Origin: a virus
Strand: one strand, 5' to 3'
Length of the DNA stretch: 64,000 nucleotides
Virus record (IMG/VR): IMGVR_UViG_3300010883_028422
Span: 71,426-135,425 of that record
Shown here: positions 3,454 through 28,754 of the stretch, piece by piece
How positions within the stretch are numbered: the first letter of the stretch is position 1
How the letters are laid out: each line of letters begins with the position of its first letter
Made by a program: the position numbers and the translations under genes
Notes under the pieces: model-generated
The model's input: the letters and a program-made list of their open reading frames with translations, nothing else
The model's database searches: none
What the model was told of the DNA's origin: nothing

Positions 3454-3486
3454 ATGCTCTATTAATAATGCTAAATATTATCGAAG

Positions 3487-8808: not shown

Positions 8809-8873
8809 TCTATATTTCTGTTTATTTTAATGGTAAGCAGATTCGCTATAGCGTAATATTCTTTATATATTGT

Positions 8874-9965
8874 ATGGAGAATATTTTGTATAACGTAAGA
8901 ATGCATACTATGCTTGGCACGAATCACAGCTGGGCTGTTGTTATGAGAAATATTGCAAAATCACTTATTTCTCTTGATAATAATATTTGTATGAAGACAA
9001 CAAATGGTATGTCAAATATAGATTCATTATTGTATGATTATTTTAATAAATCTAATAAAAATATTGATTTAGACATATGCTACACTCTTCCGAGAAATTT
9101 TAATAGAAGATTTTTAAAAAATAGTAGGCTAAAGGCGGCTATATATAATTACGAAACAGATGTTATGCCAAAAGAATGGGCTGAAAATTCTAAATATATA
9201 GACTACGCCTTCCCCTCTAGTTCGTTTTCTAAAGATATATTTTTAAAAAATGGCTGGCCAGAAGAAAAGTGTGTTGTTATTCCGCATGGAATTAATCTTT
9301 GTGATTTTGAAAACAAAGACGCATTTAGCCCCTCAACAAATAAATCATTTAAGTTTTTAAACGTATCAATTCCTCATCATAGGAAAAATATAGACTTGCT
9401 GATTGACTCATATTATGATGCGTTTACAGATGATGATGACGTATGCCTTATGATAAAAACAAAATTGAAGAAGCCAAAGTTTTCTTTTGAATCTGATGTT
9501 AAAAAAATTATTATTAATGCTCAAAAGAAATTTTTTGGAAAAAATTTACCACAAATAGAGATTTTGACCAAAAGCTTTGAGAGCATGACTCCTGTTTATA
9601 ATTGTTCAAATGCATTAGTTAGCGCGTCATCATCAGAGTGCTTCGGCCTGCCGATGCTTGAAGCAATTTCTGCTGGGAAAATTGTTATTGCTCCAAATGC
9701 AACTGGACATTTGGACTTTTTAAATAAAAATAACTCTATATTATATGAGTCGGACCCTATTGCTGCGCCTATATCATATCAGTACTGGAGGCCGTCCAAG
9801 GGGGCCCTGACATATATGCCGAGAGGGGACGAGCTTTCTCAGTCAATGATTGATGTTTATAAAAATTATGATAAATATTTACATAAATTTAAAGATAATA
9901 TGACAAAAACATCTGAAGATTTTACATGGGAGTCTGCCGTAAAAAAAATATTGGAGCTATTATGA
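8874..9965 (+). CDS. GT-B glycosyltransferase (GT4-like)
   Basis: YETD..P, VIPHG, RKNIDLLI and ECFGLPMLEA (E-x7-E motif). Confidence 0.88.
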   Translation: MENILYNVRMHTMLGTNHSWAVVMRNIAKSLISLDNNICMKTTNGMSNIDSLLYDYFNKSNKNIDLDICYTLPRNFNRRFLKNSRLKAAIYNYETDVMPKEWAENSKYIDYAFPSSSFSKDIFLKNGWPEEKCVVIPHGINLCDFENKDAFSPSTNKSFKFLNVSIPHHRKNIDLLIDSYYDAFTDDDDVCLMIKTKLKKPKFSFESDVKKIIINAQKKFFGKNLPQIEILTKSFESMTPVYNCSNALVSASSSECFGLPMLEAISAGKIVIAPNATGHLDFLNKNNSILYESDPIAAPISYQYWRPSKGALTYMPRGDELSQSMIDVYKNYDKYLHKFKDNMTKTSEDFTWESAVKKILELL

Positions 9966-11539
9966 ATATATTTAATTCTTCAAATAGCTCAGTATGGTCC
10001 GGTAAAGATTTTGAGCTAAAAGATAACGGAGGCTTAGTTTTAAGAAAAAAGGCATTTATAAAGCATAATGTGGGAAGCTTATCTGGTAGAAATAATTTAA
10101 AAATAATTGGTAAAAAAAGAACTGGCCCTGGAGACTTTGTGTTTAATATATTGTCTTCAGGCGGGTTGGTTTTATTTTCTAAAAAAATATCTTTTAAAAA
10201 AAGAAGTTATTCTGAGATTTCTGTAAATTTTGATATAAATGGAGAATATGATGGTTGCAGCATAATAATTGAAAAGGACCAGAAATCATTTGGAACTATA
10301 GAAGTGTCAAAGATTTCAATTTCAAACATTTCTGGCAAGCCTTTGGGTAGTTCTTCAAAAGATAGCAAGGTTGTTATGAAGAATAGCTTAAGGCAAAATA
10401 TAAAGAAAAAAATGTCATATTTTAATGATATTTCCAAAAGAAAAGTAGCCTTTATAATTCCATATTCCATATATGGTGGTGCTGAAGTTTATTTAAAAAA
10501 TATTATCAATAATTTAGATAATAATATTTATAATATAACAATATTATATATGAAAAAAAATATTTTAAGTAACTTTATAACAAATAAAAATGTAAAGCAC
10601 GTTGATGCAAAAACACACGATCATTTAAGAAGCCTTCTTATCGCAAATAATTATAATTATTTAATATTTTATAATAGTTATAATGTATATAACACAATAA
10701 AGCGCGTTGTTGAGCCAGAGCTAGTAGACAGCTTCATATATGAAATATATCATAGTGATTTTGTATGGAGTGATGCATTATCTGCAAGAAAAAGTCGAGA
10801 TGGATTTTCTGGGTTAATATCTATATCAGAAAATTTAGGAAATAATATTAAAAATATTAATTCAAGGCATGTTGTGCCCGTTGGCATTGATTTAGATTTA
10901 TTTAAAAAATACAATAAAAAGATATTATATAATTCTAAAAAAATAAATGTTGATAGAAGAATTTTGGTTGGAGTGAAGCCAACAATAGGCGTTGTTTCTA
11001 GATTGTCAAAAGAAAAAAATGTTGGGTATATATTAGATTTGGCAAAGATTATGTTAAATTATCAGTTTATAATAGTTGGCGATGGTCCGGAAAAAAATAA
11101 TCTTATAAAGAGTTGCGCAGACAGGGGGATTAAAAATGTAATTTTTGCCGGATATGTTAAAAATACACATGATTATTATAATATATTTGACGCATTTGTT
11201 TTGCCAACAAAATGTTCTGAGGGCACGCCAATTTCCATATTAGAGGCTATGGCGTGCAGTGTTCCTATTTTTACAACAAATTATGGAAATATAAAAGACT
11301 TTGTTTTTAATAATTCAAATGGATTTATTATATCATTAAATGCAGATGAAGATTCAAGGTTGATAATTGAAAATTTTAAAAATAAAGATGTTGTTTCTAA
11401 TGCTAAAAAGTATGTAGTTAAAAATCATGATATAGGCACCACGTGTGAAGAGTTTTCTTCGATACTTTTGTCAAACGGAAGTTTCCATAAAAAAGATAGA
11501 AATTCGAGTAGTTTGTTGGTAACAGGTTATTATGCGTAA
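9962..11539 (+). CDS. GT4-like glycosyltransferase with extra N-terminal domain
   Basis: YGGAE, VPVGID, SRLSKEK, VGDGP, EGTPISILEAMAC. ATG 9962 overlaps the previous TGA (ORF track starts at 9926). Confidence 0.88.
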   Translation: MNIFNSSNSSVWSGKDFELKDNGGLVLRKKAFIKHNVGSLSGRNNLKIIGKKRTGPGDFVFNILSSGGLVLFSKKISFKKRSYSEISVNFDINGEYDGCSIIIEKDQKSFGTIEVSKISISNISGKPLGSSSKDSKVVMKNSLRQNIKKKMSYFNDISKRKVAFIIPYSIYGGAEVYLKNIINNLDNNIYNITILYMKKNILSNFITNKNVKHVDAKTHDHLRSLLIANNYNYLIFYNSYNVYNTIKRVVEPELVDSFIYEIYHSDFVWSDALSARKSRDGFSGLISISENLGNNIKNINSRHVVPVGIDLDLFKKYNKKILYNSKKINVDRRILVGVKPTIGVVSRLSKEKNVGYILDLAKIMLNYQFIIVGDGPEKNNLIKSCADRGIKNVIFAGYVKNTHDYYNIFDAFVLPTKCSEGTPISILEAMACSVPIFTTNYGNIKDFVFNNSNGFIISLNADEDSRLIIENFKNKDVVSNAKKYVVKNHDIGTTCEEFSSILLSNGSFHKKDRNSSSLLVTGYYA

Positions 11540-12641
11540 AGTTGTAAATTTTCATGGAATTGGCAGGCCCGGAAGTGGTTATGGTGACGCGTGTATAAAT
11601 ATAGCAAAGGCATTTAGTTTGACCAATATAGATTTAAATTTTAATTTATCAAAGTTTAAAACTATAGCGGAATCAGCGAAACTTAAGTCTTGCGATGCTG
11701 TTGGTGACATAAATTTTTATGTTGGTCCGCCACCATACAAGAATATGTCTGAAGATAAATACAATATAATACATTTTTACTGGGAGGCGGATCGGCTGCC
11801 ACCTTACTGGGGGAGGTTCATACTTAAGGCGGATGAAATCTGGGCCCCATGCAAGCTTGTCGAGTCTGCATGCAGAAGGGCTGGATTTTCTAAAAAAATT
11901 AGAATAATTCCAACTCCATATGATAAGTTTGCGAATAGCAAGGGTTATACTTTGGATATACCATCTGAAATTTCTGATAAATATTTTGTTGGTGATAATG
12001 TATTTAAATTTTATTCTATATTCCAATGGCACCATAGAAAGGGGCCAGATGTATTGCTAAATTCTTACTGGAAGACGTTTGGTAGACACGATAATGTTAT
12101 TTTGATATTGAAAGTTAATGCTTTAAATCTACCTGGATATACTATTGATGATATAAAGAGCGATATATCAAGTATAAAAATAAAACTAAATTTAAATTAC
12201 TATTCTCCAGTTTATGTGATTGATTCAATTTTGCCGAAGAAGTATATTGGAGCCTTACATAATTATTCAGATTGCTATATATCGCCACATAGAGGAGAGG
12301 GCTGGGGCATGCCAATAGGTGATGCTATTTCTTATAAAAATCCAGTAATTATAACAAAATATGGTGGAATATCTGATTATTTAAATCAAAGTAATTCTGC
12401 TATAATAAAGCATAGACTAACACATGTTAAAAATATGTCTTGGTCTCCAAATATTTATAATAAATCACAAAGATGGGCTGAGCCGAGCGTGAATTCTGCA
12501 TCTGAATTAATGCGTGATGTTTATGAAAATTTTGATAAATATAAAATAAAGGCAGGCAGGGCTCACTCTATAATTAGTGGGTTTTCTATAGATAGTGTTT
12601 CAAAAATTATTAGTGAGCATATATGTCAAATAAAATTATAA
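11532..12641 (+). CDS. GT4-like glycosyltransferase
   Basis: SGYG, WEADRLP, QWHHRKGPDVLL, RGEGWGMPIGDA. Confidence 0.85.
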   Translation: MRKVVNFHGIGRPGSGYGDACINIAKAFSLTNIDLNFNLSKFKTIAESAKLKSCDAVGDINFYVGPPPYKNMSEDKYNIIHFYWEADRLPPYWGRFILKADEIWAPCKLVESACRRAGFSKKIRIIPTPYDKFANSKGYTLDIPSEISDKYFVGDNVFKFYSIFQWHHRKGPDVLLNSYWKTFGRHDNVILILKVNALNLPGYTIDDIKSDISSIKIKLNLNYYSPVYVIDSILPKKYIGALHNYSDCYISPHRGEGWGMPIGDAISYKNPVIITKYGGISDYLNQSNSAIIKHRLTHVKNMSWSPNIYNKSQRWAEPSVNSASELMRDVYENFDKYKIKAGRAHSIISGFSIDSVSKIISEHICQIKL

Positions 12642-13579
12642 TTGCCGATTGGCTTGTGCACGGAGGACATCAGTATGAGTTTTTCAAAACTGGTCCTAAA
12701 TTTTTTTGTACAAAATTAGATTCGAAACCTCCAAAGTCAGGTGACTTTGGAAGACCTGTTTTTTCAAATAAAAAAGTTAATATGGTTGCGGAATATGAAA
12801 AAAATTTATTATCTAAAAATTTTGATATAATAATGGTCAGAGCTGGTGTGACTCCAGGTCGCTACAATGCACTTCAAGATAAAAAAAGAAGAACGCCGGG
12901 TATTGCGGTTATACAAACTGTCTCTAAGCATCCCGATTCGAGCTTTCCAATCCCAAGTTGGGCGAGGGTTGTTGTTTGGAATTCAAAATATGTAATGGAT
13001 CAAAATTATAAAAATCTTCCGGGCAAAAAACATTTGTATATTCCACATGGATTTGACCCAAGTGAATTTTGCAATATGAATACTATTCGTAATGAAAGGA
13101 TTCTATCTGTATCTAGTGTTTTTCAAAAAAGAGGGACGATTCTTGGGTTTGATGACTGGAGATTTGTGTCTAATGAGACCAGATTGTGTGACTTAATTGG
13201 ACATGGTGATGAAAGGCTTCGTGAGTCTATAGGCACATTTTCATTGAATAAATTAGTTAAAAAATATAACGAGTACAGTGTGTTTTTAAATACAACAAAA
13301 AGGAGCGCCATGCCGCGTGCGAGAGCTGAGGCTCTTATGTGTGGTACACCAATTGTTACAACTAATAATTATGATATAGGCAGATATCTCAGAGATGGGA
13401 AGGATTGTTTGTTTGCGGATAATAAAGAGGATATGATCAAATGCGTGAGAAAAGTTTTGAGATCTAAAAATCTACAGAGAGAGCTTAGCAGTCATGGTCG
13501 GGCGAGAGCTATAAAATTCTTTGGGATAAAATCCTATAAGAATCGATGGCAAGAGGCCTTTTATGAGTCAACAAAATGA
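12623..13579 (+). CDS. GT4-like glycosyltransferase
   Basis: IPHGFD, SAMPRARAEALMCGTPIV, DGKDCL. Confidence 0.82.
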   Translation: MSNKIIIADWLVHGGHQYEFFKTGPKFFCTKLDSKPPKSGDFGRPVFSNKKVNMVAEYEKNLLSKNFDIIMVRAGVTPGRYNALQDKKRRTPGIAVIQTVSKHPDSSFPIPSWARVVVWNSKYVMDQNYKNLPGKKHLYIPHGFDPSEFCNMNTIRNERILSVSSVFQKRGTILGFDDWRFVSNETRLCDLIGHGDERLRESIGTFSLNKLVKKYNEYSVFLNTTKRSAMPRARAEALMCGTPIVTTNNYDIGRYLRDGKDCLFADNKEDMIKCVRKVLRSKNLQRELSSHGRARAIKFFGIKSYKNRWQEAFYESTK

Positions 13580-14454
13580 GAGTTTTATGCATTGTTGATT
13601 CTTACAGGTGGGCCCTATATAATAGAGCTATTAATTTAAAAAAACATTTTCAAAATTATAATTTTGATATTATTCATTTTGAAAAAATTGAATCAGTTAA
13701 TTTTAATAATTATGATGTAATATATATTTTAAATTGGCCAATTTGGCCATTTGTGAAGCATAAGGTTAGTAGAAGTCGGAGGTATAGGTTGGTGACAACT
13801 GTTTGTAGCCATGTTGGTCGTTCCCACGCAAGAGATATGGGGCGTATATTTAATAACTTTGATAAGATAAGCACATCTAATGACTTCTTATATGAAGAAT
13901 TTAAGCCTGTTTATAAGAGCAAGGTAATAAACGCCCCATTCGGAGTGGATGGTGATTTATTTGTTAAAAAAACTATGCCTTCGAATTATAATTATATATT
14001 TGGATGGGTAGGCAACCCAGATAGATCTGTAAAAAGGTTTAATGATATAAAAGAGGTGTTTGGCAACCTTGGTGATAAGTACAGATTAAAGGTAGCAACT
14101 AATAAGAGCAGGTTTGGTAGAGCTAAAATGGTTGATTTTTATAATTCTGTAGGTACAGTTATATGCTTTAGTGATAGCGAAGGAACTCCGAACCCCATGC
14201 TTGAGGCTGCAGCCTGTGGCCGGGCTATAATATCAACTAGAGTTGGTTGTGTCCCGAGTCTTTGTAAGGGGTTGGGCGTAAATATATTTGTAAAAAATGC
14301 TTCAGATCTTAAAAGTAAAATTATTAGTTATAGCGCAAGTCCAAAGGGAATAAACTTGATTGGAAGCTCTTTGGATAAAATAGCGCACGATGAGTGGTCT
14401 TGGAGAGATAGGGCTGTTGAATTCGATAAGCTATTTAAAGGTGGTCGGACATGA
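13576..14454 (+). CDS. GT4-like glycosyltransferase
   Basis: PFGVD, GWVGN..KR, SEGTPNPMLEAAACGRAIISTRVG. Confidence 0.85.
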   Translation: MRVLCIVDSYRWALYNRAINLKKHFQNYNFDIIHFEKIESVNFNNYDVIYILNWPIWPFVKHKVSRSRRYRLVTTVCSHVGRSHARDMGRIFNNFDKISTSNDFLYEEFKPVYKSKVINAPFGVDGDLFVKKTMPSNYNYIFGWVGNPDRSVKRFNDIKEVFGNLGDKYRLKVATNKSRFGRAKMVDFYNSVGTVICFSDSEGTPNPMLEAAACGRAIISTRVGCVPSLCKGLGVNIFVKNASDLKSKIISYSASPKGINLIGSSLDKIAHDEWSWRDRAVEFDKLFKGGRT

Positions 14455-15578
14455 AAATAGGCCTATTACGCCCACCCGCTGGGATTGGCGGGGCAGAAGC
14501 TACAATGATAGAGTTATATCAAACGCTCAAGGAGCATGGAGAGGATGCCTGGATAGCTTTTGATTCGAGCAAGAAGGGCATATTTGCTGATTTTATAAAC
14601 AAGGATCTGTTTGAGAAAAAATTTGAAAGATTGTCTGGATTGAATATATCAAAAGAACAGTTTTCTGAAGAATATGTTTTAAAAAACATTATAGATTCAG
14701 ATGCGCTTATTCTTTTGCAATATAGAGCTTTTCCCGAAAGAATTCGCACTAAAGTAAAAAGTTCTAAGGCCGATGTGTACATATATGTTCCTGGGAAAAA
14801 TACACCCCATGTGACCGTTCCAATGGAGGATGGGCTAAAAGTTAAGGCTTTTTTGTTTAATTCAAAAGAAACTCTAAAATATCATTTGAATATAAAGTAT
14901 TCAAAAGACCCTTATGCGGATGGGTTGATAAAGAAGAAGTTTAGGCATGCCCACCCGCCCTTATTTTTGGGGAATTATACAGAGGTTAACAAAGTAGACT
15001 ACAAGACTTATAGGTTTCAGCATTTTAAAATAAAGAAAAGTGAGTTCTCCATTGGAGTCGTGGGGAGAATCCAGCCGTCAAAGCGCCCATTTGAAGCTTT
15101 AGATATATTTAAAAAATTAGAAAAACATTATAATTATGATGCTTTTCCAAGAAAATTATATTTCTATGGGGGAGGGGCCAAAGAGTATGTAGCTGAGGTT
15201 AAGCAATATGCAAAAAAATTAAAAATAGAGCACAAGGTGGTCTTTTGTGGGTTTTCCCCGGATGTACGATTTCGTATAAAATCTATGGATTCTATTTTGC
15301 ATTGTTGTGTAATGGAATCGTTGTCTAGAGGTATACGAGAGGCCATGGTCTTAAAAACACCCGTGGTGGCGTATGATGGGTTTGGCAATAGGAGCTTGCT
15401 AGGGGGGCAGTCTGGGCGCCTTCTCTATTCTAACGCTGATCAAGCGTCCATAATCTTGTTGAAAATCGGAACAAGTGGCAAAGTTAAGAGGCAGTTCTCT
15501 ACTTCAGTTTATAATGATATTATAAATATAGAAAAAAAACTTGGAAGAAATTACTTGGATCTTTTATATGAAAAATAA
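14451..15578 (+). CDS. GT4-like glycosyltransferase
   Basis: GIGGAE, VGRIQPSKR, ESLSRGIREAM..TPVVA. Confidence 0.85.
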   Translation: MKIGLLRPPAGIGGAEATMIELYQTLKEHGEDAWIAFDSSKKGIFADFINKDLFEKKFERLSGLNISKEQFSEEYVLKNIIDSDALILLQYRAFPERIRTKVKSSKADVYIYVPGKNTPHVTVPMEDGLKVKAFLFNSKETLKYHLNIKYSKDPYADGLIKKKFRHAHPPLFLGNYTEVNKVDYKTYRFQHFKIKKSEFSIGVVGRIQPSKRPFEALDIFKKLEKHYNYDAFPRKLYFYGGGAKEYVAEVKQYAKKLKIEHKVVFCGFSPDVRFRIKSMDSILHCCVMESLSRGIREAMVLKTPVVAYDGFGNRSLLGGQSGRLLYSNADQASIILLKIGTSGKVKRQFSTSVYNDIINIEKKLGRNYLDLLYEK

Positions 15579-16467: not shown

Positions 16468-16583
16468 TGTTTATTTTTGTATATAGTTATGAAAAATATG
16501 GCTCGTTGCGCTCATATATGGGCTTAGGGCGGGTGGCTTATGCGGCCAGAGAGGTTGATGTGATGGTTCGAGATGGCGAATAA
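16467..16583 (+). CDS. Possible 38-aa coupled mini-ORF (MFIFVYSYEKYGSLRSYMGLGRVAYAAREVDVMVRDGE)
   Basis: Its ATG overlaps the upstream stop (TAATG). It fills the gap and overlaps the next gene start. Below the ORF-track cutoff. Confidence 0.35.
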   Translation: MFIFVYSYEKYGSLRSYMGLGRVAYAAREVDVMVRDGE

Positions 16584-17259: not shown

Positions 17260-17277
17260 TGTTTAAAGTTATAGATT

Positions 17278-18246: not shown

Positions 18247-18248
18247 TT

Positions 18249-18899: not shown

Positions 18900-18914
18900 A
18901 GCTGTGAGGTGGAT

Positions 18915-19717: not shown

Positions 19718-19744
19718 TGCAGTGTTTTGGATTTGGTGTTTGAT

Positions 19745-21503: not shown

Positions 21504-21535
21504 TAATTATAATTAAATATAGAGGGCATTGTGAT

Positions 21536-23365
21536 ATGTGCGGTATATTTGGTTATATAGGTGGCGAAGATTCCCATCAGAGGGTTAAGCTGGGCCTTGA
21601 GGGGCTTGCCTATAGGGGCTATGACTCGGCCGGAATAGTGTCGGTTGTAAATAATAAATTTGAAGAAAACAAGTGTGTTGGCCACCCAGAAGAGTTGTTG
21701 GATTTAGATATTGAATCTAACCTGTCAATAGGGCATAATAGATGGGCAACGCATGGCGCTCCAAGCGCCTTAAATGCTCATCCGCACTTCTCAAATGACG
21801 GCAAGATAGCGCTTGTTCACAACGGAATAATAGAAAATTATTATGAGATAAGTGATTTTTTAGAAAAAAATAATTTTTCTTTTTATTCAGATACTGATAC
21901 TGAGTTAATCCCCAACCTCATTCAATATTATATGGGTAATTTAAATATTGTTGATGCGACTATAGCCGCAATGAATGATATCAGGGGGGCTTATGCGATG
22001 GCCTTTATCCACATAAACCACCCAGAGAAGATAATTATAGCGAGATTGGGCTCTCCGGTTTGTGTTGGCAGAGACGCGTCTGGTGGCATATACGTATCTT
22101 CTGATGCAGGCGCTTTACCGCAGTCTGTAAAGGAGGTTATGGACATAGGTGACGGCAAGCTGGTGGTGGCGGACTCTTGCGGCAGCGTTGTAGTTAAAAA
22201 TCTTGAAGGAAATACCTTAGAGCATAAATTTGAAGAGGCTGAGATAAAAGAAAAAAATTATACAATTGGTAGCTTTAATCATTTTTTAGAAAAAGAGATA
22301 TTTGAGCAGCCTATTTATCTTAGAAACGCTATTAGCGGCAGGGTAAATATTGATAAAAAAATAATAAAGCTTAGCGGCATATCAGGCCATATTCAGAGTA
22401 TATTAGATGCCGAAGAGATAATCTATACTGGATGTGGATCGGCATATTATGCTGCGTGTATTGGCGCACAGTCAATGGAGAGTGTTGCGAGAAAGAGAGT
22501 TAGGGTTATGCCGGCAGGAGACCTGAAGTATTATAATCCAGTTATAAATGAAAAAACTGTTTTGATAGCGGTATCTCAATCTGGAGAGACGGCTGATACT
22601 ATAGGCTGTATAAAGATGGCGAAAAATCATGGCGCAACTACATTGGGAGTTGTAAATGTTGTAAATTCAACTATATCAAGAATGGTTGATTCTGGGATAT
22701 ATATTCGCGCAGGAGAAGAGGTTAGCGTTGCATCTACAAAATCTGTTATCAATCAGATGATGGCAATGATATCCTTGGCGGTGTTGGTTGGATCAAAAAG
22801 AGATTTATCAGAATTAGAATATGAGTCTTTGATATCAGAATTGCATTGTTTGCCAAATATGATTGACAAAGTTTTATTAGAAAGCGGTATGATTGAAGAG
22901 ATTGCAAAAAAATATGCAAATTATAGCAATATGCTGTGCATTGGCCGAGGAGCGTTAGAGCATATTGCAAAAGAAGCTGCTTTAAAGATAAAAGAGATAA
23001 GCTATATTCATGCAGAAGGATATTCTGCAGCAGAATTAAAGCACGGACCTCTTGCGCTCATTGATGAGAATATGCCGACACTAGCAATGGTTGCGAGCGG
23101 ACCGATGGAGGGGAAGATGCTGAGCAATATAAGGGAGATTAAAAGCAGAGGTGGCGCGGTAATAGGGGTTGTCAGCTCTGATGTTTCAAAAGAAACCAGG
23201 AGGGTTTTAGACGAAATTATAGAGGTCCCTGCATGCTCAAACAAGCTCCTTGAGCCATTATTATTTTTGGTTCCATGCCAGCTATTTTCTTATTTTCTAG
23301 CAAAAGAAAACGGACGCTGCATAGACCGTCCAAGAAACTTGGCAAAAAGTGTTACGGTTGAGTAA
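21536..23365 (+). CDS. glmS: Glutamine--fructose-6-phosphate aminotransferase
   Basis: MCGIFG N-terminal nucleophile start at 21536, YRGYDSAG, HNRWATHG, SQSGETADT, ELKHGP, PRNLAKSVTVE. Confidence 0.98.
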   Translation: MCGIFGYIGGEDSHQRVKLGLEGLAYRGYDSAGIVSVVNNKFEENKCVGHPEELLDLDIESNLSIGHNRWATHGAPSALNAHPHFSNDGKIALVHNGIIENYYEISDFLEKNNFSFYSDTDTELIPNLIQYYMGNLNIVDATIAAMNDIRGAYAMAFIHINHPEKIIIARLGSPVCVGRDASGGIYVSSDAGALPQSVKEVMDIGDGKLVVADSCGSVVVKNLEGNTLEHKFEEAEIKEKNYTIGSFNHFLEKEIFEQPIYLRNAISGRVNIDKKIIKLSGISGHIQSILDAEEIIYTGCGSAYYAACIGAQSMESVARKRVRVMPAGDLKYYNPVINEKTVLIAVSQSGETADTIGCIKMAKNHGATTLGVVNVVNSTISRMVDSGIYIRAGEEVSVASTKSVINQMMAMISLAVLVGSKRDLSELEYESLISELHCLPNMIDKVLLESGMIEEIAKKYANYSNMLCIGRGALEHIAKEAALKIKEISYIHAEGYSAAELKHGPLALIDENMPTLAMVASGPMEGKMLSNIREIKSRGGAVIGVVSSDVSKETRRVLDEIIEVPACSNKLLEPLLFLVPCQLFSYFLAKENGRCIDRPRNLAKSVTVE

Positions 23366-23390
23366 AATACAAACTTAGTGGAGGCGTTAT

Positions 23391-24386
23391 ATGCTTACGG
23401 CAGTTATAACTGGAGTTGCAGGCCAAGATGGTAGTTATTTAGCAGAGTTATTGTTGGATAAAGGCTACAAGGTGGTTGGAATATCTAGGCGAAAAAGTGT
23501 TAATGATGGATTGCAGAATTTAGAACACAATGTGTTGGGTAATGATAATTTTACACTTTTGAATGGAGATATAAAGGATTCAACTTTTATATATAGGTGC
23601 GTTGAGGAATACAGGCCAGATGAGTGGTATAACTTAGCTGCACAATCTAATGTTGGACATTCTTTTAAAGAACCAGTTGAAACATTCGGAACTAACGCAT
23701 TAGCTGTAGTTATTCAGCTTGAAGCCATAAGATCCCTGTCTCCATCGACAAAGTTTTATCAAGCATCTACCAGCGAGCTATGGGGAGGGCTCAGCTGCCC
23801 CAAAACAGGATATAGCGAGAGCATGAGGTTTTATCCAAGATCTCCATATGGCGTATCCAAGTTATCAGCGTATTGGTCAGTGGTCAATCATAGAGATGCG
23901 TATGGCTTGTTTGCATGTAGCGGTATACTCCATAATCACAGCAGCCCAAGGAGGGGTTTGGACTTCGCAACAAGAAAAATAACCAGAGGCGTTGCGGAGA
24001 TTACTCTTGGGCTGAAGGATAAGATAAGAATGGGTGATTTGAGCGCATTTCGTGATGAGGGACATTCCAAGGACTATGTTGAGGCTATGCATCTTATGTT
24101 GCAAAATGATAGCCCAAAGGATTATGTTATTTCCACGGGAACCGGAGCAACTATAGAGGATATGTTTAGGCATGTCGCATCTTTTGCAGGTTTAAAATTT
24201 GAAGACCTCTATGAGGTAGATGAAAGATTTATGAGGCCGTCTGAAGTGCCGTTTTTGCTTGGTAATTCATCGTTAGCAAAGAGCGAGCTTGGATGGAGTC
24301 CAAAATATACATGGAAAAACCTATTAGAAGAGATGTTCGAGAGTGATTTGTTGGTAATTTCAAATGAAAGATGGAAAAATAGTTAA
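23391..24386 (+). CDS. gmd: GDP-mannose 4,6-dehydratase
   Basis: ITGVAGQDGSYLAE, YNLAAQS, YQASTSE, PRSPYGVSK, GILHNHSSPRRG, TRKIT. GGAGG RBS. Confidence 0.96.
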   Translation: MLTAVITGVAGQDGSYLAELLLDKGYKVVGISRRKSVNDGLQNLEHNVLGNDNFTLLNGDIKDSTFIYRCVEEYRPDEWYNLAAQSNVGHSFKEPVETFGTNALAVVIQLEAIRSLSPSTKFYQASTSELWGGLSCPKTGYSESMRFYPRSPYGVSKLSAYWSVVNHRDAYGLFACSGILHNHSSPRRGLDFATRKITRGVAEITLGLKDKIRMGDLSAFRDEGHSKDYVEAMHLMLQNDSPKDYVISTGTGATIEDMFRHVASFAGLKFEDLYEVDERFMRPSEVPFLLGNSSLAKSELGWSPKYTWKNLLEEMFESDLLVISNERWKNS

Positions 24387-25326
24387 AAAAATAGTAATAA
24401 TAGCGTTTAATTTTGGATTTGCAGGAAGATATGTTAACGGTCCAGGGATATGTCTTTATAATTTATATAATATCCTAAAAAAACACACTTCTGTTGACGT
24501 TAAGATATTTACAAAAATGCATGCGCATGGGCAATTTAATTCAGACGATATATTTTCGATAGATGATAAAGAATATCTGTCAGAATGCATAAAAAATTGT
24601 GATATTCTGCATCATTGGAGTGGCCTTGCAAATATTTATTCTAATATAATAAAATTTGCTAATTTTTGTAATAAAAAAGTTATAATTGGTCCAAATGTAA
24701 TTGACACTGTGGACTTTTTAAAAGAAAAGAAGTTTTTGTCAAAAATCAACTATGATAGGATTTTATTGGTAAATAATAGGATAAAATACAGAGCTTTAGA
24801 TTTTTATGGCATAGATAGCGACCTATTAAGCATATTTATGGTCGGACCAGACTTAGACTTGTGGTCGCCAAGTGACATATGTAATGAAAAGATTTTGTGG
24901 AAAGGCAACTCGGCACAAGGCGTTAAGGGTGTATCTTTTGGGGTCGAGGTGTCTAAAAATTTGCCACAATATGATTTCGATTTCGTTGGACGCCCAACCC
25001 CATATAATTATTTTAAGCACATAGGGCCCGCAAAGGAGTATAAACTATTCTTTAGCACGTCAATGAGTGAGACGATGGGCATGGGGTTGGCAGAACAGTG
25101 GGCTGCGGGTATACCATCTATAACACACCCAAAGATTTATCTTCATGGTGAAAATTATATCACGGGCATAATAACGGATAGGTCCGTAAGCGCTTATTGT
25201 GATGCAATTGTTGAAATAATGGAGAATCCTGTTTTGTATAAAAATTTATCTTTAGGCGCAAGAAAGTATATGGAAGACAACTTTTCACATGAGTCAATTG
25301 CGTCAAAATATCTTTCTTTATTGTAA
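24364..25326 (+). CDS. GT4-like glycosyltransferase
   Basis: GVDL-like GPDLD, WKG...KG, SETMGMGLAEQWAAGIP. Confidence 0.75.
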   Translation: MKDGKIVKKIVIIAFNFGFAGRYVNGPGICLYNLYNILKKHTSVDVKIFTKMHAHGQFNSDDIFSIDDKEYLSECIKNCDILHHWSGLANIYSNIIKFANFCNKKVIIGPNVIDTVDFLKEKKFLSKINYDRILLVNNRIKYRALDFYGIDSDLLSIFMVGPDLDLWSPSDICNEKILWKGNSAQGVKGVSFGVEVSKNLPQYDFDFVGRPTPYNYFKHIGPAKEYKLFFSTSMSETMGMGLAEQWAAGIPSITHPKIYLHGENYITGIITDRSVSAYCDAIVEIMENPVLYKNLSLGARKYMEDNFSHESIASKYLSLL

Positions 25327-25338
25327 TTGAGCTTAAAT

Positions 25339-26046
25339 ATGTTAGTTGATGTTATAATTCCTGTATATAATCCAGGTCATTATTTGGATGAGGCCTTAAA
25401 AAGCTGTATAAAACAGACATATAGTGATTATAAAATAACTGTAGTTGATGATTGCTCTACTGAAAATATAATGCCGATCATCTCCAAGTATAGAGGTATT
25501 TCTTATATAAGAAACACTGAGAATATGGGGCCGGCTGCCTCCAGAAATGTTGGAATTAAGAATTCTAACGGAAGCCTTATAAGCCTTTTGGATGCAGATG
25601 ATGTTTGGGACCCAAATAAGTTATTATATAGCGTTAGAGAGTTTAAGAAGGACGGCGGCATAGGCATGACCTGTGGTAACTACAGAATAATGACAAGCTC
25701 TAGAGTTTTAAAGCCATTTTATAAAAAAAGTATAGCCATAAATCATAGGATGCTGATGAAGAACAATTATGTCGCATCAGGCTCTGTTACGGTAAAACGA
25801 AGCGTTATTGATGACGTTGGATTGTTCAATAAGGATTATTGGATTGCAGAGGATTATGATTTATGGTTAAGAATAAGCGAAAAGTATCCTATAAAGTATA
25901 TACATAAAATTCTATATTATTATAGGATAGTGAAAGGCGGCGGATCACTAACTCAGAGGGACGATGTGCAGGAGGCGCATGAATTTAATTTATCAAAGAT
26001 AAAAAAAGAGTCAGCCTGGAGGGTTAGGGAGAGTGAAGACAGCTAG
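25339..26046 (+). CDS. Soluble GT-A glycosyltransferase (GT2)
   Basis: VIIPVYN, VVDDCSTE, N.GPAASRN.G, LDADD, EDYDLWLR. No transmembrane segment. Confidence 0.93.
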   Translation: MLVDVIIPVYNPGHYLDEALKSCIKQTYSDYKITVVDDCSTENIMPIISKYRGISYIRNTENMGPAASRNVGIKNSNGSLISLLDADDVWDPNKLLYSVREFKKDGGIGMTCGNYRIMTSSRVLKPFYKKSIAINHRMLMKNNYVASGSVTVKRSVIDDVGLFNKDYWIAEDYDLWLRISEKYPIKYIHKILYYYRIVKGGGSLTQRDDVQEAHEFNLSKIKKESAWRVRESEDS

Positions 26047-26266
26047 CGTAAGCCGCAAAAGACATATTTTAAAAACAATAACCTGGAGAGTGATTGGAAC
26101 TTTAGATACAATGCTTCTTGGATGGATTGTAACCGGGAGTGCACTAATCGGTCTAAAAATCAGTGCTATTGAGTTAGTCACAAAAATGTTATTGTATTAT
26201 TTTCATGAAAGATTATGGTATCGTTTTAATTTTGGAATAAAAAATAGGGATAAACTGAATGGTTAA
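26033..26266 (+). CDS. DUF2061-like small membrane protein
   Basis: RHILKTITWRVIGTLDT...K..LYYFHER.W pattern. Confidence 0.8.
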   Translation: MKTASVSRKRHILKTITWRVIGTLDTMLLGWIVTGSALIGLKISAIELVTKMLLYYFHERLWYRFNFGIKNRDKLNG

Positions 26267-28754
26267 AAAATTTGATATATCTTCTGTAAAAAATAAAAGA
26301 ATTTTAATAAAAACTTTTATGTTTGAATCAGGACTTTGGTATTTGGCAAAATCACTTGGCGATATATTGTCTAAAAATAATTATGTACATTATATTCCAA
26401 AGGCTAGATATACAGATTCAGGAAGAAGGTTTTCGAGGTCATATCCTGAGCCAAACAATAAGGATGAGTTTGTAGATATAAACTTTGATGAATTTTCTGC
26501 AGAAAACAGCGTTGAGGGGCAGATATCCAAATGTATAGACAAATATAATATTGACTTGGTTATATCATTCGAAACTCTAATGGAGTGTGGCCAGTGGGTT
26601 GTCAACTGCAAGATAAAGCATGACGTAGAAATATATGACGTTCCAATGCCAGAGTGGACAACAAAAAGGTTCGTAGAGTCCGATGCATATAAATCTTTTG
26701 ATAAAATAATATGCCTGACGGACTCGTGCAGTGATATCTTTAAAGATTATAATAACGTGGTTAGATCTAATTGGCTTTATATGAAAAAGAAGGAGGTGGA
26801 GAAGTCAGATGATGTTGTTAGGTTTTATCACCCAGCATCATTGAATCTAAAATTTTCTACCAAAAATACATCTAATGTTATAGACGCCTTCCTGTCATTT
26901 TTAAATACAAGTGATTTACAGACACCTGTTGAGCTAATATTGACTGGAGGCATTTCGGATGAACATTCGGACAGATGCAATGAGCATGATAATATATTAA
27001 TAATTAATAATTATATTGATAGACAAGGAGTTTTTGATATATTGGAAAAAACAAATTGCCTTATCTCCCCCTCAAAAAGAGAGGGGCTTGGACTATCTTT
27101 TTTTGAGGCAAAAGCATTTGGATGTAGTATTATAACAACAAATTATCCGCCGATGAGTGATTATGGCGACTATCTGTGTAAGGTCTCCAGCTTGGTTTCT
27201 GATGAAAAAATTATACCACTGGCAGTCGTTAAGTCTGAAGACATCTTGAATCAATTAGAAAAATATTATGAGGAATTTATAATGGCAAAAAATAGCAAAA
27301 CTACTGCAAAAGAAGTAGAGGTTAAACCGAAAAGGAAGACGAAAAAGGCTGTCGAAAAAGAAAATCAGGATTTGCTTTCTGCGTTTTCAGCGAAAACTTC
27401 TTCTGATGACACGCTTGACGCAAGTGAAGATAACACCTCTGCTGAAAGTGTAGACATGGATAATGCCGTATTAGAAAAGTTAAAAAGCAAAATGGGCAAA
27501 AATACAACCGTTAGGAGTGATGCTATGCCGAACCTTATTGATGAAAGAGCTGTAGCCATAAATATGGCTGTTATCGGAGTTGGTCAGGCCGGCTCGAGGC
27601 TTGCAGAGGAATTTTATTTAAATGGATATGATGTTGGAGTAATTAATACATCTGCGCAAGATTTAGAGTTTATAAATGTAACGCCAACGCAAAAGCTTCT
27701 TATCGAGGGAAGCCTAGGCGGAACCGGTAAGGATTTGGATCTCGGAAGGGATCTTTTTAGTGAAAGTGAGGAGTTGATCTATAACTTTGTATCTGAAGTT
27801 TCGGACGGAAACGACATGGTTTATCTTGCCGTATCTGGCGGCGGTGGAACCGGGTCGTCTTCTGTTGATTTGTTAGTTCCAATGCTATTTAACCTTGGGC
27901 TTCCAGTTGGTGTTATATATGTATTGCCAAAGGCAACTGAGGATGCAAAGTCTAAAAAGAATTCAATTGAAACGTTATCTAGATTGGCACGAATGACATC
28001 TGATAGCTTGGTTTCAAACCTTATAGTTGTAGACAATGCTAGAATTGAGCAAATTTATGCAAATTTGAGTCAATCTCAATTTTGGAAGTCTGCAAATAAG
28101 GCGATTATAGAGCCGCTTCATTTGTTTAATACGCTTACAGCATCAGCATCGGATCACACATCTATGGACCCGAGTGATTTTGGAAAAATAATATCATGTG
28201 GTGATTGCTCAATATACGGCGTTATGGAGGTTGATAATTATATGGAGGAGACCGCGCTTGCAGAGGCCGTTATAGACAGCCTTGGAACAAGCATGCTCGC
28301 GGAAGGCTTTGATGTTGCTCAAACACGAGTTGGTGGCGTAATCATCACCGGGCCAAGAGAGGCCCTTGATAGGCTTCCGGCTATAAATATAAATTATTGT
28401 TTCCATATGATATCTGAGCAAACCAATGGGGCGTCTATATTCCAGGGCATATACAGCTCTGGAAGCACGTCTGATGGGGCTAATGATGCAGTTAAGATAT
28501 ACTCCTGGTTTGCCGGGCTGGGGCTGCCCAAGGACAGGGTTGACAGCTTAAAGAGAGAGAGCGCGATGCAATCAGAAATTGCTGCAGAAAAAGAGAAAAA
28601 TCGGGCGTCAGCTATGGTTCTAGATCTCGGTGAGGATAAGGTTAACTCCGTTACGGAAGAGGTTAGCAGAAAGATTAAAAAGAAGAAGTCTGGGTTTAAC
28701 AAGCTCCAGAGAACCTCCAGAAAGTCTATTATAGATAAAAGAAGAAGGCGATAA
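26259..28754 (+). CDS. In-frame fusion: GT4-like glycosyltransferase (aa ~1-341), low-complexity linker, tubulin/FtsZ-family GTPase and basic tail
   Basis: GT part: PSKREGLGLSFFEAKAFG. Tubulin part: VIGVGQAGSRLA, INT..QDL, GGTGKD, GGGGTGS signature, MDPSDF T7-like loop. No stop between the two parts. Confidence 0.88.
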   Translation: MVKKFDISSVKNKRILIKTFMFESGLWYLAKSLGDILSKNNYVHYIPKARYTDSGRRFSRSYPEPNNKDEFVDINFDEFSAENSVEGQISKCIDKYNIDLVISFETLMECGQWVVNCKIKHDVEIYDVPMPEWTTKRFVESDAYKSFDKIICLTDSCSDIFKDYNNVVRSNWLYMKKKEVEKSDDVVRFYHPASLNLKFSTKNTSNVIDAFLSFLNTSDLQTPVELILTGGISDEHSDRCNEHDNILIINNYIDRQGVFDILEKTNCLISPSKREGLGLSFFEAKAFGCSIITTNYPPMSDYGDYLCKVSSLVSDEKIIPLAVVKSEDILNQLEKYYEEFIMAKNSKTTAKEVEVKPKRKTKKAVEKENQDLLSAFSAKTSSDDTLDASEDNTSAESVDMDNAVLEKLKSKMGKNTTVRSDAMPNLIDERAVAINMAVIGVGQAGSRLAEEFYLNGYDVGVINTSAQDLEFINVTPTQKLLIEGSLGGTGKDLDLGRDLFSESEELIYNFVSEVSDGNDMVYLAVSGGGGTGSSSVDLLVPMLFNLGLPVGVIYVLPKATEDAKSKKNSIETLSRLARMTSDSLVSNLIVVDNARIEQIYANLSQSQFWKSANKAIIEPLHLFNTLTASASDHTSMDPSDFGKIISCGDCSIYGVMEVDNYMEETALAEAVIDSLGTSMLAEGFDVAQTRVGGVIITGPREALDRLPAININYCFHMISEQTNGASIFQGIYSSGSTSDGANDAVKIYSWFAGLGLPKDRVDSLKRESAMQSEIAAEKEKNRASAMVLDLGEDKVNSVTEEVSRKIKKKKSGFNKLQRTSRKSIIDKRRRR
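27270..27284 (+). promoter_or_regulatory. Internal RBS (GAGGA, 27270-27274) and in-frame ATG (27282) for a possible stand-alone tubulin
   Basis: TATGAGGAATTTATAATG; spacing of 7 nt; (27282-26259)/3=341, so in frame. Confidence 0.6.

Follow-up and report, generated by a model that had tools for sequence, protein, structure and literature searches.

Gene content and organisation of the island

The window analysed here, a stretch of 64,000 nucleotides within a 135-kb viral contig, contains a glycan-assembly island of ~18 kb (8874-27161) that is encoded on a single strand and lies immediately downstream of a baseplate-wedge gene and two genes for giant acidic proteins. The features are given below in window coordinates.

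1-3453, +: C-terminal 1,150 aa of a giant acidic protein of 3,295 aa; the ORF crosses the window edge (contig 64991-74878)
3459-3466, +: CTATTAAT motif, 28 nt 5' of the fibre-like gene; candidate promoter/operator common to structural genes
3487-8808, +: very acidic fibre-like protein, 1,773 aa; orthologs always 5' of the GT block
8874-9965, +: GT4-1, core; PF00534 3.6e-8, EX7E present
9926-11539 (likely start near 9962), +: GT4-2, core, with N-terminal CBM-like beta-jelly-roll; PF00534 2.3e-28
11532-12641, +: GT4-3, core; PF00534 1.5e-6, canonical EX7E absent
12623-13579, +: GT4-4, core, glycosyltransferase-like; PF13524 6e-12, EX7E absent
13576-14454, 14451-15578 and 15541-16467, +: GT4-5, GT4-6 and GT4-7; Pfam GT4 domains, EX7E in all three
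16573-17259, +: MT-a, class-I SAM methyltransferase fold; weak Pfam motif-I match
17278-18246, +: ST-a, sulfotransferase; PF13469 (Sulfotransfer_3) 3e-11, net charge +32
18249-18899, +: MT-b, SAM methyltransferase; PF08241 1e-20
18992-19717, +: ST-b, sulfotransferase-fold protein; PAPS-loop-like motifs TGRSGTAFL and RDHKDVASS
19727-20572 (likely start ATG 19745), +: mini NDP-sugar 6-dehydrogenase; TIGR03026 1e-39
20556-21503, +: NAD-dependent sugar epimerase, nearest the TviC type (UDP-(N-acetyl)hexuronate 4-epimerase); PF01370 6e-59
21485-23365, +: GlmS, glutamine-fructose-6-phosphate transaminase; TIGR01135 618 bits, NF001484 621 bits
23391-24386, +: GMD, GDP-mannose 4,6-dehydratase; PF16363 8e-103
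24364-25326, +: GT4-8, conserved GT; weak PF00534 5e-4, EX7E present
25327-26046, +: GT2, short, soluble, TuaG/WcaA-like; PF00535 2e-30, NCBIfam TuaG 9e-26
26259-28754, +: GT4-9 fused to a TubZ/PhuZ-like tubulin, 831 aa; PF00534, PF00091 and PF22453 in one ORF
59864-60613, +: ST-c, carbohydrate-type sulfotransferase, outside the island; PF03567 2.3e-15, full length

The nine GT4-like domains and one GT2 domain recognised in the initial annotation were borne out by Pfam and by searching all six frames of the entire 135-kb contig, in which PF00534 matched nine times and PF00535 once, always within the island, which holds the full complement of the contig. Pfam placed GT4-type domains in ORFs 8874, 9926, 11532, 12623, 13576, 14451, 15541 and 24364 and in the N-terminal third of 26259-28754, and the GT2 domain in ORF 25327; ORFs 13576 and 24364 scored under the PF00534 cut-off, the former nonetheless above that of PF13692. 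The canonical EX7E motif is kept in 7 of the 9 GT4-like domains. Neighbouring genes overlap by 4-40 nt or are separated by gaps of 0-105 nt, with 212 nt ahead of the GT4-tubulin fusion gene, in which the GT domain (~26259-27290) is followed by a charged linker and the tubulin.

Chlorovirus B736L was the best solved relative of GT4-1 (4e-8) and GT4-3 (3.6e-6), and TarM that of GT4-4 (7e-8). In an AlphaFold2 model of GT4-2 a beta domain (residues 13-136) precedes a linker and then a GT-B fold; structure comparison of the model matched this domain to CBM36/4/6/16 and a porphyran-binding CBM (Z 11-13), and the N-terminal region had only 16 homologs, nearly all with the identical architecture. The closest named families of the island GTs (TuaC, TuaG, WcaA, EpsD/E, PglA/J, WbnH and TarM) belong mostly to envelope-glycan pathways, and their GT4 relatives include BshA, MshA, TreT, glycogen synthase and sucrose-phosphate synthase.

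The island also encodes two SAM methyltransferases, two sulfotransferase-fold proteins, a truncated NDP-sugar dehydrogenase, a TviC-like epimerase, GlmS and GMD. Both methyltransferases had been named before and both stood, MT-b on its strong Pfam match and MT-a, weak in Pfam, on its fold (Atlas score 0.97-0.98, TM 0.7-0.77 against methyltransferase clusters). The two sulfotransferases were likewise found, ST-a by Pfam and ST-b by fold (Atlas score 0.96, TM 0.72-0.74 against sulfotransferase clusters; no sequence match in Pfam, NCBIfam or PDB), but the earlier count had missed ST-c outside the island. The UDP-sugar dehydrogenase proved right as to family but incomplete: only positions 73-302 of 413 of TIGR03026 are matched, with the Rossmann and catalytic Cys motifs present and the C-terminal UDP-binding domain missing. 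The epimerase, GlmS and Gmd calls were sound. GlmS exceeds the equivalog cut-off in both TIGR01135 and NF001484, and the epimerase (NF011728 TviC 1.4e-60, under the equivalog cut-off) and GMD (TIGR01472 333 bits, cut-off of 415 not reached) are clear family matches.

TM prediction gave no convincing TM score in any island protein, in agreement with the soluble transferases first proposed. As a new observation, the transferases are strongly basic, as in peripheral-membrane GT-B enzymes: they surpass all other proteins of the contig in basicity (pI 9.3-9.9, net +10 to +32), and in several GTs the positive charge lies in both halves and is not restricted to the acceptor domain.

Fibre genes and island in related contigs

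The two giant genes described upstream do lie directly 5' of the island, but the first is, within the window, the last third of the 3,295-aa ORF. Its product (net charge -253) carries a ConA-like lectin domain (Laminin_G_3 2e-8) and had no PHROG match of its own in a PHROG search; its gene is directly 3' of the baseplate wedge/Baseplate J gene (phrog_6 4.5e-45, PF04865 1e-21), and by position it is a baseplate/fibre-module protein. The fibre-like protein (net charge -166, pI 4.2) has orthologs of 1,505-1,533 aa at 41-50% identity. A Ser/Thr/Pro-rich linker (S+T 0.53) spans residues ~1539-1580 (window ~8101-8226); it is the sole strong mucin-like tract in the contig and a point in favour of virion glycosylation. 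A terminal domain of ~190 aa that the orthologs lack follows the linker. The tract is not conserved, as the G001 and G002 orthologs stop short of it, and this counts against the virion as acceptor.

Five of the six CTATTAAT copies in the contig are intergenic, where intergenic DNA makes up 4% of the sequence, as are 14 of the 20 copies in G001. We newly observed that the motif is kept 5' of the orthologous fibre gene in G001, G002 and G005 (four genomes with the present contig), and that neither a further copy nor a terminator-like hairpin separates the fibre gene from the GT block. The first GTs and the upstream fibre genes thus appear from the sequence to be co-transcribed, which would favour a virion acceptor. 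The motif also precedes other structural genes; its occurrence is not limited to them, and this detracts from the argument.

Comparison among relatives, which the initial annotation had suggested, placed the island in the identical slot in six related contigs; its place beside the fibre genes is fixed and conserved within the clade. The four core GT4s are preceded in G000, G001, G002 and G005 by Baseplate J, a protein of 3.2-3.5k aa and one of 1.5-1.8k aa, in this order. At the 3' end, all six contigs read GMD, a GT4 (with no detectable GT4-8 ortholog in L071), GT2 and the GT4 fused or adjacent to tubulin. A further new finding is that this conserved core (the four GT4s beside the fibre genes, and dehydrogenase, GMD, GT4, GT2 and tubulin-linked GT4) flanks a swappable tailoring cassette. 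GT4-5, GT4-6 and GT4-7 belong to the cassette and have orthologs in G005 only (43-52% identity; none in G001 or G002), and MT-b and ST-b have G005 orthologs at 50% and 36% identity. The orthologs of ST-c in G001 and G002 sit within the island slot, and ST-c is a displaced member of the island set.

Identities among core orthologs were 50-53% for GT4-1 (G001, G002 and G005), 38-43% for GT4-3, 45-64% for GT4-4 (the highest conservation among the four core GT4s) and 37-48% for GT4-8. GT2 orthologs occur in all relatives, in G001 moved to 195.8 kb, and the mini-dehydrogenase is kept in five relatives as a protein of 262-277 aa (50-73% identity). The GT-tubulin fusion is kept in >70 protein clusters, and across 16 diverse members EX7E and GGGTGS do not vary. 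The GT and the tubulin are separate overlapping ORFs in G005 and L073. Overall, the core GTs have diverged to a similar extent as the structural proteins (37-64% versus 33-50% identity). GMD is 58-67% identical within the clade and at most 48% identical to any sampled cellular genome, and is therefore an old resident gene rather than a recent host-specific capture.

Export functions and the acceptor of the glycan

As the present contig is only part of a genome, the absence of export genes had to be checked in a syntenic relative that is 94% complete. Neither this relative nor the present contig encodes a protein with at least five TM segments, a PGT (PF02397, PF00953), Wzx, Wzy/ligase or GtrA, and the family searches likewise gave no match in four records besides the relative. 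The earlier statement that export machinery is lacking was therefore upheld by family searches and TM-segment counts. Bacterial surface-polysaccharide loci (Wzx/Wzy or ABC) and Gtr cassettes share GT4/GT2 enzymes, nucleotide-sugar genes, tailoring enzymes and low GC with the island but, unlike the phage genomes here, include a priming transferase, flippase, polymerase/ligase, ABC-2 permease or GtrA. Genes for a major head protein, a baseplate wedge and Baseplate J lie on the contig, which marks it, as first proposed, as phage DNA rather than a cellular EPS locus. Across a clade of huge aquatic phages the island forms a lineage-conserved glycan-assembly system without lipid-carrier or export genes of its own.

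The step from soluble GTs and missing export genes to a cytoplasmic acceptor is not supported, because GT-B enzymes acting on polyprenyl-PP-linked acceptors are themselves peripheral proteins without TM helices (PMC12768416, PMC5792488). Primer, flippase and ligase could come from the host. A weighty alternative, less probable than the virion reading, is that peripheral-membrane phage GTs add sugars, at the membrane's inner face, to an undecaprenyl-PP-linked primer of the host, and that the host's priming transferase, flippase and ligase/polymerase display a sulfated, methylated glycan on LPS or capsule; receptors would then be masked against superinfection, or progeny kept from re-adsorbing to debris. 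The basic, TM-less GTs resemble the monotopic GT-B enzymes of lipid-linked pathways, their nearest named families are envelope-glycan enzymes, and the variable cassette recalls O-antigen serotype variation, all of which also weigh against a virion acceptor. Chlorovirus GlmS and dehydrogenase supply a host-surface polymer (PMC9614988), the GlmS gene here suggests bulk sugar demand, which again speaks against the virion, and jumbo cyanophage GT clusters have been interpreted as acting on the host surface (PMC7824862, section 3.4.10). However, every membrane step would have to come from the host, whose flippase and ligase must take a foreign, bulky, sulfated unit, and Gtr-type and Wzy-type seroconversion genes are absent. 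Nor does this explanation sit well with positive charge across both halves of several GTs, a GT tethered to tubulin, a GMD that is no recent host acquisition, or core GTs found clade-wide at a fixed fibre-gene site, whereas the clusters interpreted as O-antigen modifiers were reported to be sporadic (PMC7824862).

The initial annotation had offered DNA hypermodification as its alternative, in which GTs glycosylate modified phage DNA bases and so block restriction. Polycationic transferases could bind DNA, and some phage GTs are known to build glycans on 5hmC (10.1101/2023.12.21.572611; PMC13326640). The idea went unsupported and is very improbable: a search of five records, the 94%-complete one among them, revealed no TS-family hydroxymethylase although its control worked, and a TET/JBP search gave no match, its control also being silent. 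Moreover, a set of ten GTs and three sulfotransferases, with uronic-acid and 6-deoxyhexose precursors and a CBM-like domain, goes far beyond any DNA glycan known, and the island lies in the fibre module, not the nucleotide-metabolism module.

Another cytoplasmic product, such as a free or lipid-anchored oligo- or polysaccharide, a glycolipid, or a glycosylated non-virion phage protein (the tubulin cytoskeleton or an intracellular compartment), we consider unlikely. The GT4 relatives do include small-molecule and storage-glycan enzymes, the CBM-like domain of GT4-2 suggests a glycan acceptor of some length, and the GT4-tubulin fusion would fit. Nevertheless, such a product has no known phage precedent, ten GTs with sulfation and methylation would be an elaborate path to a metabolite, and the fixed linkage with the fibre genes would be left unexplained.

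Virion glycosylation is, in our tentative judgement, the best reading of the island. It is favoured by the fixed site after the Baseplate J and fibre genes across the clade, by core GTs that diverge like structural proteins beside a long-resident GMD, by the lack of an export route in the 94%-complete relative, and by a last GT that is fused or adjacent to a cytoplasmic tubulin with its catalytic motif invariant. The support from position and conservation is circumstantial.

A possible pathway and known glycosylation systems

For this virion reading we infer the following route, its sugars and above all its acceptor. Phage enzymes would boost and convert host sugar precursors, with GlmS supplying hexosamine, the mini-dehydrogenase and TviC-like epimerase yielding hexuronic or N-acetylhexosaminuronic acids, and GMD a GDP-6-deoxyhexose precursor. 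Up to ten transferases (the four core GT4s, GT4-8, GT2, the tubulin-linked GT4 and the cassette GTs) may then assemble a heteroglycan, which the swappable cassette would tailor by drawing on host PAPS and SAM. In this phage the cassette comprises three GT4s and a pair each of methyltransferases and sulfotransferases, a third sulfotransferase being encoded elsewhere. The likeliest acceptors would be the phage's own virion proteins during cytoplasmic assembly, with the giant acidic baseplate/fibre proteins encoded just upstream of the GTs as leading candidates, and the outcome would be an acidic, sulfated, O-methylated glycan coat.

Precedents in giant-virus fibrils and capsids and in mycobacteriophage virions favour this reading. 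The fibril clusters of Megavirinae and chlorovirus capsid glycosylation (PBCV-1 A064R/A061L, GMD, GFAT, UGDH; PMC9614988) share with the island many soluble GTs, methyltransferases, GMD, GlmS/GFAT, a UDP-sugar dehydrogenase and clade-specific sugar cassettes around a shared theme; such clusters combine numerous GTs and methyltransferases with sulfate-metabolism genes, the latter in some Megavirinae, and act in the cytoplasm without ER/Golgi or lipid-carrier export. A chlorovirus protein is also the best solved relative of two core GT4s. In contrast to these eukaryotic giant viruses, whose glycans are chemically determined, the island belongs to a tailed phage and its glycan is predicted from genes; it encodes sulfotransferases themselves and not PAPS-synthesis genes, and it differs further by a truncated dehydrogenase and a GT-tubulin fusion.

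According to the papers citing Freeman et al. 2023 (PMC11256854, PMC12619734), soluble GTs of the mycobacteriophages Che8 and Rita work within the bacterial cytoplasm to decorate capsid and tail proteins of the phages themselves, as demonstrated by mass spectrometry. As described there, these ~60-kb actinophages carry a few GTs near the right genome end, whereas the present system counts ten GTs, two methyltransferases, four sugar-precursor enzymes and, with ST-c, three sulfotransferases, and its island has a fixed site 3' of the fibre genes.

The paper on the 'Moraphages', aquatic jumbo phages of up to ~307 kb with PhoH, UvsW, a sigma factor and baseplate wedge gp6 (PMC12619734), describes no such island, sulfotransferases, tubulin fusion or fibre-gene linkage; their four core-genome GT orthogroups, with a function left open by the authors, match the four core GT4s of our phage, as does the gene content, a likeness by description only. 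The 'outer polysaccharide' clusters of jumbo cyanophages (Iyer et al. 2021, PMC7824862) also come from very large phages, combine paralogous GTs with sugar-modifying enzymes and are polymorphic among relatives. Unlike those clusters, interpreted as diversifying host O-antigen or capsule, the island has a core conserved clade-wide and a fixed position by the fibre genes.

Genomic setting and conservation of the island

The window is the final 64 kb of a 135,425-bp IMG/VR viral contig (G000), for which CheckV gives a completeness of ~24%. This figure may be off: a 135-kb contig at 24% would imply a genome of ~560 kb, against 317 kb for a related viral contig, G001, that CheckV rates as 94% complete. 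The genes of the island and its flanks are as follows, with numbers giving window positions (GT, glycosyltransferase; MT, methyltransferase; ST, sulfotransferase).

Features of the island and its flanks
Upstream, same strand: major head protein (phrog_2522, 2.8e-71)
Upstream, same strand: head-decoration-like protein and several virion structural proteins
Upstream, same strand: 2,486-aa protein whose central cluster of hydrophobic residues is tape-measure-like
Upstream, same strand: baseplate wedge/Baseplate J protein (PF04865, 1e-21; phrog_6, 4.5e-45)
After the baseplate wedge, running into 1-3453: 3,295-aa protein with a ConA-like lectin domain; only its tail, as the first ORF, falls in the window
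3487-8808, after the 3,295-aa protein: 1,773-aa protein, here called the fibre gene
8874, 9926, 11532, 12623: core glycosyltransferases GT4-1 to GT4-4
13576, 14451, 15541: GT4-5 to GT4-7
16573, 17278, 18249, 18992: MT-a, ST-a, MT-b and ST-b
19727-20572: short dehydrogenase
24364: GT4-8
25327: GT2
26259-28754: GT4-9 fused to tubulin
Downstream of the island: UvsW-like helicase, IstB-like loader, DnaB, PrkA/DUF444/SpoVR triad, DAC-domain protein
Further downstream: sigma factor, RNR, PhoH, topoisomerase, dUTPase

Neither giant protein (3,295 and 1,773 aa) matched a PHROG family, and their position after the baseplate wedge together with their size points to both being virion proteins. Because head, baseplate, helicase and tubulin genes flank the island, the locus belongs to a phage; the major head protein, the baseplate genes, the helicases and tubulin rule out a cellular EPS locus.

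Related viral contigs were reached via the GT-tubulin protein. The largely complete G001 (316,664 bp) is syntenic with G000, and its contig ends fall inside the structural module. When island turnover was compared among relatives, the island occupied the same slot in every relative examined, with a variable tailoring cassette. The slot begins with Baseplate J, a protein of 3.2-3.5k aa, a protein of 1.5-1.8k aa and the four core GT4s (37-64% identical between genomes), followed by the cassette; it continues with a mini-dehydrogenase and GMD, between which an epimerase and GlmS are usually found, then GT4-8 and GT2, and ends with a GT4 fused to tubulin or directly ahead of it, before the UvsW helicase. 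Its size is 18 kb in G000 versus 41 kb in G001.

Tailoring cassettes by contig
G000: GT4-5 to GT4-7, MT-a, ST-a, MT-b, ST-b
G005: a set nearly as in G000
G001: GT2-like protein, two hexapeptide acetyltransferases, methyltransferase, split AsnB-like amidotransferase, DegT aminotransferase, GFO/IDH/MocA oxidoreductase, two sulfotransferase-like genes, phosphomannomutase
G002: different again from the other three

The G001 cassette enzymes up to the oxidoreductase presumably form a WbpB/E/D-type route to a diacetamido-uronic acid. GMD proteins were 58-67% identical within the clade versus at most 48% to any cellular genome sampled. The best cellular matches (41-48% identical) came from mixed phyla, which ruled out a host call from GMD. 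Moreover, a search of 5.8 billion proteins turned up just 16 homologs of the N-terminal region of GT4-2, almost all sharing its architecture. Because of the shared slot, the clade-level GMD identity and the rarity of this GT4-2 region, the island is, as judged from sequence comparison, an old core feature of the phage lineage carrying a swappable tailoring module.

Glycosyltransferases, tailoring enzymes and precursor enzymes

The initial annotation had counted nine GT4-like enzymes and one GT2. Pfam and a six-frame family search of the whole contig returned the same set, all of it within window 8874-27161. At the Pfam gathering score seven of the nine GT4s passed PF00534 and the one at 13576 passed PF13692, while GT4-8 stayed under the cut-offs at 20 bits, yet is conserved in all relatives. 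The EX7E motif of the C-terminal domain is canonical in seven of the nine, including the tubulin-fused GT, and absent from those at 11532 and 12623. Among the GT4s the GT-B fold was checked on GT4-2 only. Its AlphaFold2 model (pLDDT 81.5) consists of a CBM-like beta-jelly-roll, a disordered linker and a two-Rossmann GT-B domain, and it matched HepE, WlaC, PimB' and BshA (Foldseek E 1e-18). The beta domain resembled CBM36, CBM4, CBM6, CBM16, a porphyran-binding CBM and a hyaluronan-binding module (Z 11-13), and also non-carbohydrate jelly-rolls, among them those of Eph receptors and Cry/Vip toxins. The model thus hints at a glycan-bearing acceptor of some kind. The acceptor could not be read from the GT-B part, which matched small-molecule, lipid-linked, teichoic-acid and protein-acceptor GT4 enzymes equally. 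For core GT4-1 and GT4-3 the top profile match, with weak E-values, was the chlorovirus GT4 B736L, an enzyme with no known acceptor of its own (PMC9614988).

Among the tailoring enzymes, MT-b is a strong SAM methyltransferase match, and MT-a is weak in Pfam with a methyltransferase fold in Atlas. ST-a matches Sulfotransfer_3 (PF13469, 3e-11). ST-b gave no family match and nothing from a PDB sequence search or from pairwise BLAST against ST-a; its PAPS-loop-like motifs and its Atlas similarity to the sulfotransferase fold suggest that it is a sulfotransferase. A third such gene, ST-c, matches a carbohydrate sulfotransferase family (PF03567, 2.3e-15). It adjoins the topoisomerase gene at 59864-60613, 33 kb off the island, and its orthologs in G001 and G002 lie within the island slot. 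No APS kinase was found, so PAPS must be supplied by the host.

Of the precursor enzymes, GlmS (GATase and two SIS domains in Pfam) scored above its equivalog cut-offs (618 versus 418 bits for TIGR01135, 621 versus 381 bits for NF001484). The epimerase is a clear TviC-like family match under the equivalog cut-off. GMD, which matches PF16363 over its full length (345 bits), fell under the TIGR01472 equivalog cut-off (333 versus 415 bits), a score that places it in the GMD family without certifying its exact activity. The dehydrogenase does not have the three-domain architecture of UDP-glucose/GDP-mannose dehydrogenases: it covers only model positions 73-302 of 413, and Pfam found no C-terminal UDP-binding domain (PF03720). 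It keeps the Rossmann motif GNGFVG and the catalytic-Cys motif GHCFPKD, and the short form is kept at 50-73% identity in five relatives (G001, G002, G005, L071 and L073). The N-domain of this mini-dehydrogenase is shortened too, and translation probably begins at the ATG at 19745. Recoding or a broken gene at the in-frame stop between 18992 and 19727 was rejected: these are two unrelated ORFs, each with its own orthologs.

More than 70 protein clusters have the GT4-tubulin fusion (831 aa), the largest of their contigs being ~350 kb, and EX7E and the tubulin motif GGGTGS are invariant in 16 diverse members. Separate GT4 and tubulin ORFs in different frames occur in G005 (15249-17547, overlap 50 nt) and in L073 (9010-11422, overlap 23 nt). 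These split counterparts indicate that the fusion arose from neighbouring genes, the last gene of the island and the one beside it; alternatively, the split forms might make some fusion protein by frameshifting. With its motifs intact, the fusion is predicted to tether at least one active GT to a filament protein of the cytoplasm. A phage-database search with the fusion protein found no cultured relative, its sole match being the tubulin of Bacillus phage G (27% identity). The GT fused to tubulin and the dehydrogenase without a nucleotide-binding domain are two unusual proteins for study.

Membrane components, charge and the acceptor

The island enzymes had been described as soluble, and a Kyte-Doolittle scan agreed, as none of the island proteins gave a convincing TM segment. 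The further step, from the lack of a TM helix to a cytoplasmic acceptor, was not borne out. GumK/H/I, PimA and PglH, GT-B enzymes with polyprenyl-PP-linked acceptors, are peripheral or monotopic proteins that have no TM helix and contact anionic lipids through Arg/Lys (PMC12768416, PMC5792488). Since such enzymes also do without a TM helix, its lack does not locate the acceptor in the cytoplasm.

The proposed lack of export machinery holds for the phage genome as far as the near-complete G001 shows; because G000 is a fragment, absence from G000 alone proves little. G001 contains no ORF with at least five hydrophobic segments, and only small proteins with 2-4 segments and a tape-measure-like protein (four) score. 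Searches of five records (G000, G001, G002, G004 and G005), with positive controls, found no initiating phosphoglycosyl transferase (Bac_transf PF02397; WecA/MraY PF00953), no Wzx (PF01943), no Wzy/ligase (PF04932) and no GtrA (PF04138). The island therefore has neither the primer, flippase or exporter and polymerase or ligase of a Wzx/Wzy- or ABC-dependent polysaccharide locus nor the make-up of a Gtr-type cassette. An export route may be supplied by the host.

With pI values of 9.3-9.9 and net charges of +10 to +32, the enzymes that would touch the acceptor (GT4-2 to GT4-7, ST-a, MT-b and ST-b) are the most basic proteins of the contig bar topoisomerase; the precursor enzymes have a pI of ~5 and the contig median is 5.35. 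The positive charge covers both halves of several GTs, and the G001 orthologs of the basic transferases are likewise basic. A pI control built on nine GT-like ORFs from cellular GMD neighbourhoods, whose background pI differed greatly, was too small for use. The giant proteins next to the island carry the largest negative charges on the contig, net -253 and -166, so that polycationic transferases (8874-19717) stand against extremely acidic giant proteins (1-8808). The predicted island product is itself polyanionic. The charge implies an anionic acceptor or anionic surroundings, and nothing further.

The reading we favour, at somewhat below even likelihood, is phage-autonomous glycosylation of virion proteins, most plausibly of the giant ones of fibre and baseplate, by an acidic heteroglycan bearing sulfate and methyl groups. 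By mode of action the nearest systems would be giant-virus fibril/capsid glycosylation and mycobacteriophage virion glycosylation, with which the island, known here from its genes, shares virus-encoded soluble GTs and precursor and tailoring genes without lipid-carrier or export genes. To our knowledge, phage virion glycosylation has so far been documented only in small actinophage systems with few GTs. If the virion is the target, a clade-wide set of at least seven GTs with sulfation and methylation beside fibre genes would make autonomous glycosylation in tailed phages as elaborate as in giant eukaryotic viruses. Sulfated glycans would then join virion chemistry, raising questions on adsorption, particle stickiness, grazing and immune or defence evasion at sea.

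A serious rival, which we consider possible but rather doubtful, is remodelling of the host envelope via the lipid carrier, flippase and ligase of the host. If true, it would be an unusually large and conserved superinfection-exclusion system wholly dependent on host export machinery. On either reading the island is a compact, soluble, expressible enzyme set for rare sugars and glycan sulfation. Other cytoplasmic products seem unlikely. We give very little credence to DNA modification: a TS-family hydroxymethylase (PF00303) was not found in the five records although its control worked, and neither the size nor the chemistry of the island fits a DNA target well. TET/JBP (PF12851) also gave no match, a weak negative, as its control was silent everywhere.

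A bolder form of virion decoration, which we regard as a long shot, is an algal-mimic coat, sulfated, O-methylated and rich in uronic acid and 6-deoxyhexose, most likely on the giant fibres. The glycan-binding proteins of the hosts would capture the phage, and the cassette would retune the bait. The models would be fucoidan-, ulvan- or porphyran-like glycans, and the hosts marine polysaccharide foragers, probably Bacteroidota, using their own surface proteins. Phages would then have their first sulfated glycoprotein virion, and a way to adsorb by glycan mimicry.

The clade hosting the island consists of widespread huge aquatic phages. GT clusters of jumbo cyanophages have been described as sporadic (PMC7824862), whereas the island is old and core, in a fixed slot. 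Moraphages, also aquatic, have four core GT orthogroups of unresolved function (PMC12619734); the likeness of their 25 described genomes to the present contig is one of gene content only.

Gene packing, a recurrent motif and neighbouring genes

Island genes are spaced by overlaps of 4-40 nt or gaps of 0-105 nt. The motif CTATTAAT occurs six times in the contig, with five of the six copies in intergenic DNA, which makes up 4% of the sequence. Three copies lie 28-36 nt upstream of virion-module genes, and the one at window 3459 precedes the 1,773-aa gene; the motif is also found upstream of the orthologous fibre gene in G001, G002 and G005. In G001, intergenic DNA holds 14 of the 20 copies, some of them ahead of the GT-tubulin gene, GlmS and a structural gene, so the motif is not exclusive to structural genes.

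Some sites of CTATTAAT
Window: 3459
Contig: 13048, 22108
G001: 282089, 255223, 238695, 18762

In places the motif forms the palindrome CTATTAATAG. We regard CTATTAAT as a candidate phage promoter or operator, possibly recognised by the phage sigma factor encoded at 39358-39915. Neither a copy of CTATTAAT nor a terminator-like hairpin separates the fibre gene from the core GT4s, whereas clear hairpin terminators do follow other structural genes; for these reasons we infer that the core GTs are probably co-transcribed with the fibre gene. Scanned for promoters and terminators, positions 8000-27500 yielded no excess over shuffled sequence, and all the terminator-like sites lay inside genes; the one informative outcome was the lack of a hairpin in the fibre-to-GT gap.

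Downstream of the island, window 34136-39358 holds a complete PrkA/DUF444(YeaH)/SpoVR triad followed by the DAC-domain (diadenylate cyclase-like) protein, an arrangement kept at 55-74% identity in all relatives examined. The G001 slot (239-272 kb) also encodes two large proteins, one PARP-like/NUDIX (1,128 aa) and one PcfJ-like (1,122 aa), as well as a 710-aa protein with HTH domains of the Fis type, a PALP enzyme, a phosphomannomutase and, on the opposite strand, a LOG/lysine-decarboxylase-like protein. A 22.6-kb contig from a Pacearchaeota MAG carries, at 189-3109, adjacent homologs of GT4-3 (27% over 302 aa) and GT4-1 (25% over 295 aa) beside GMD, and may be a misbinned viral contig. Finally, in the related contig G004 the UvsW-like helicase (9864-12236) has 790 aa versus 489 here and the SpoVR homolog (21057-23666) 869 aa versus 475 here; both may carry inserted elements, for example inteins.
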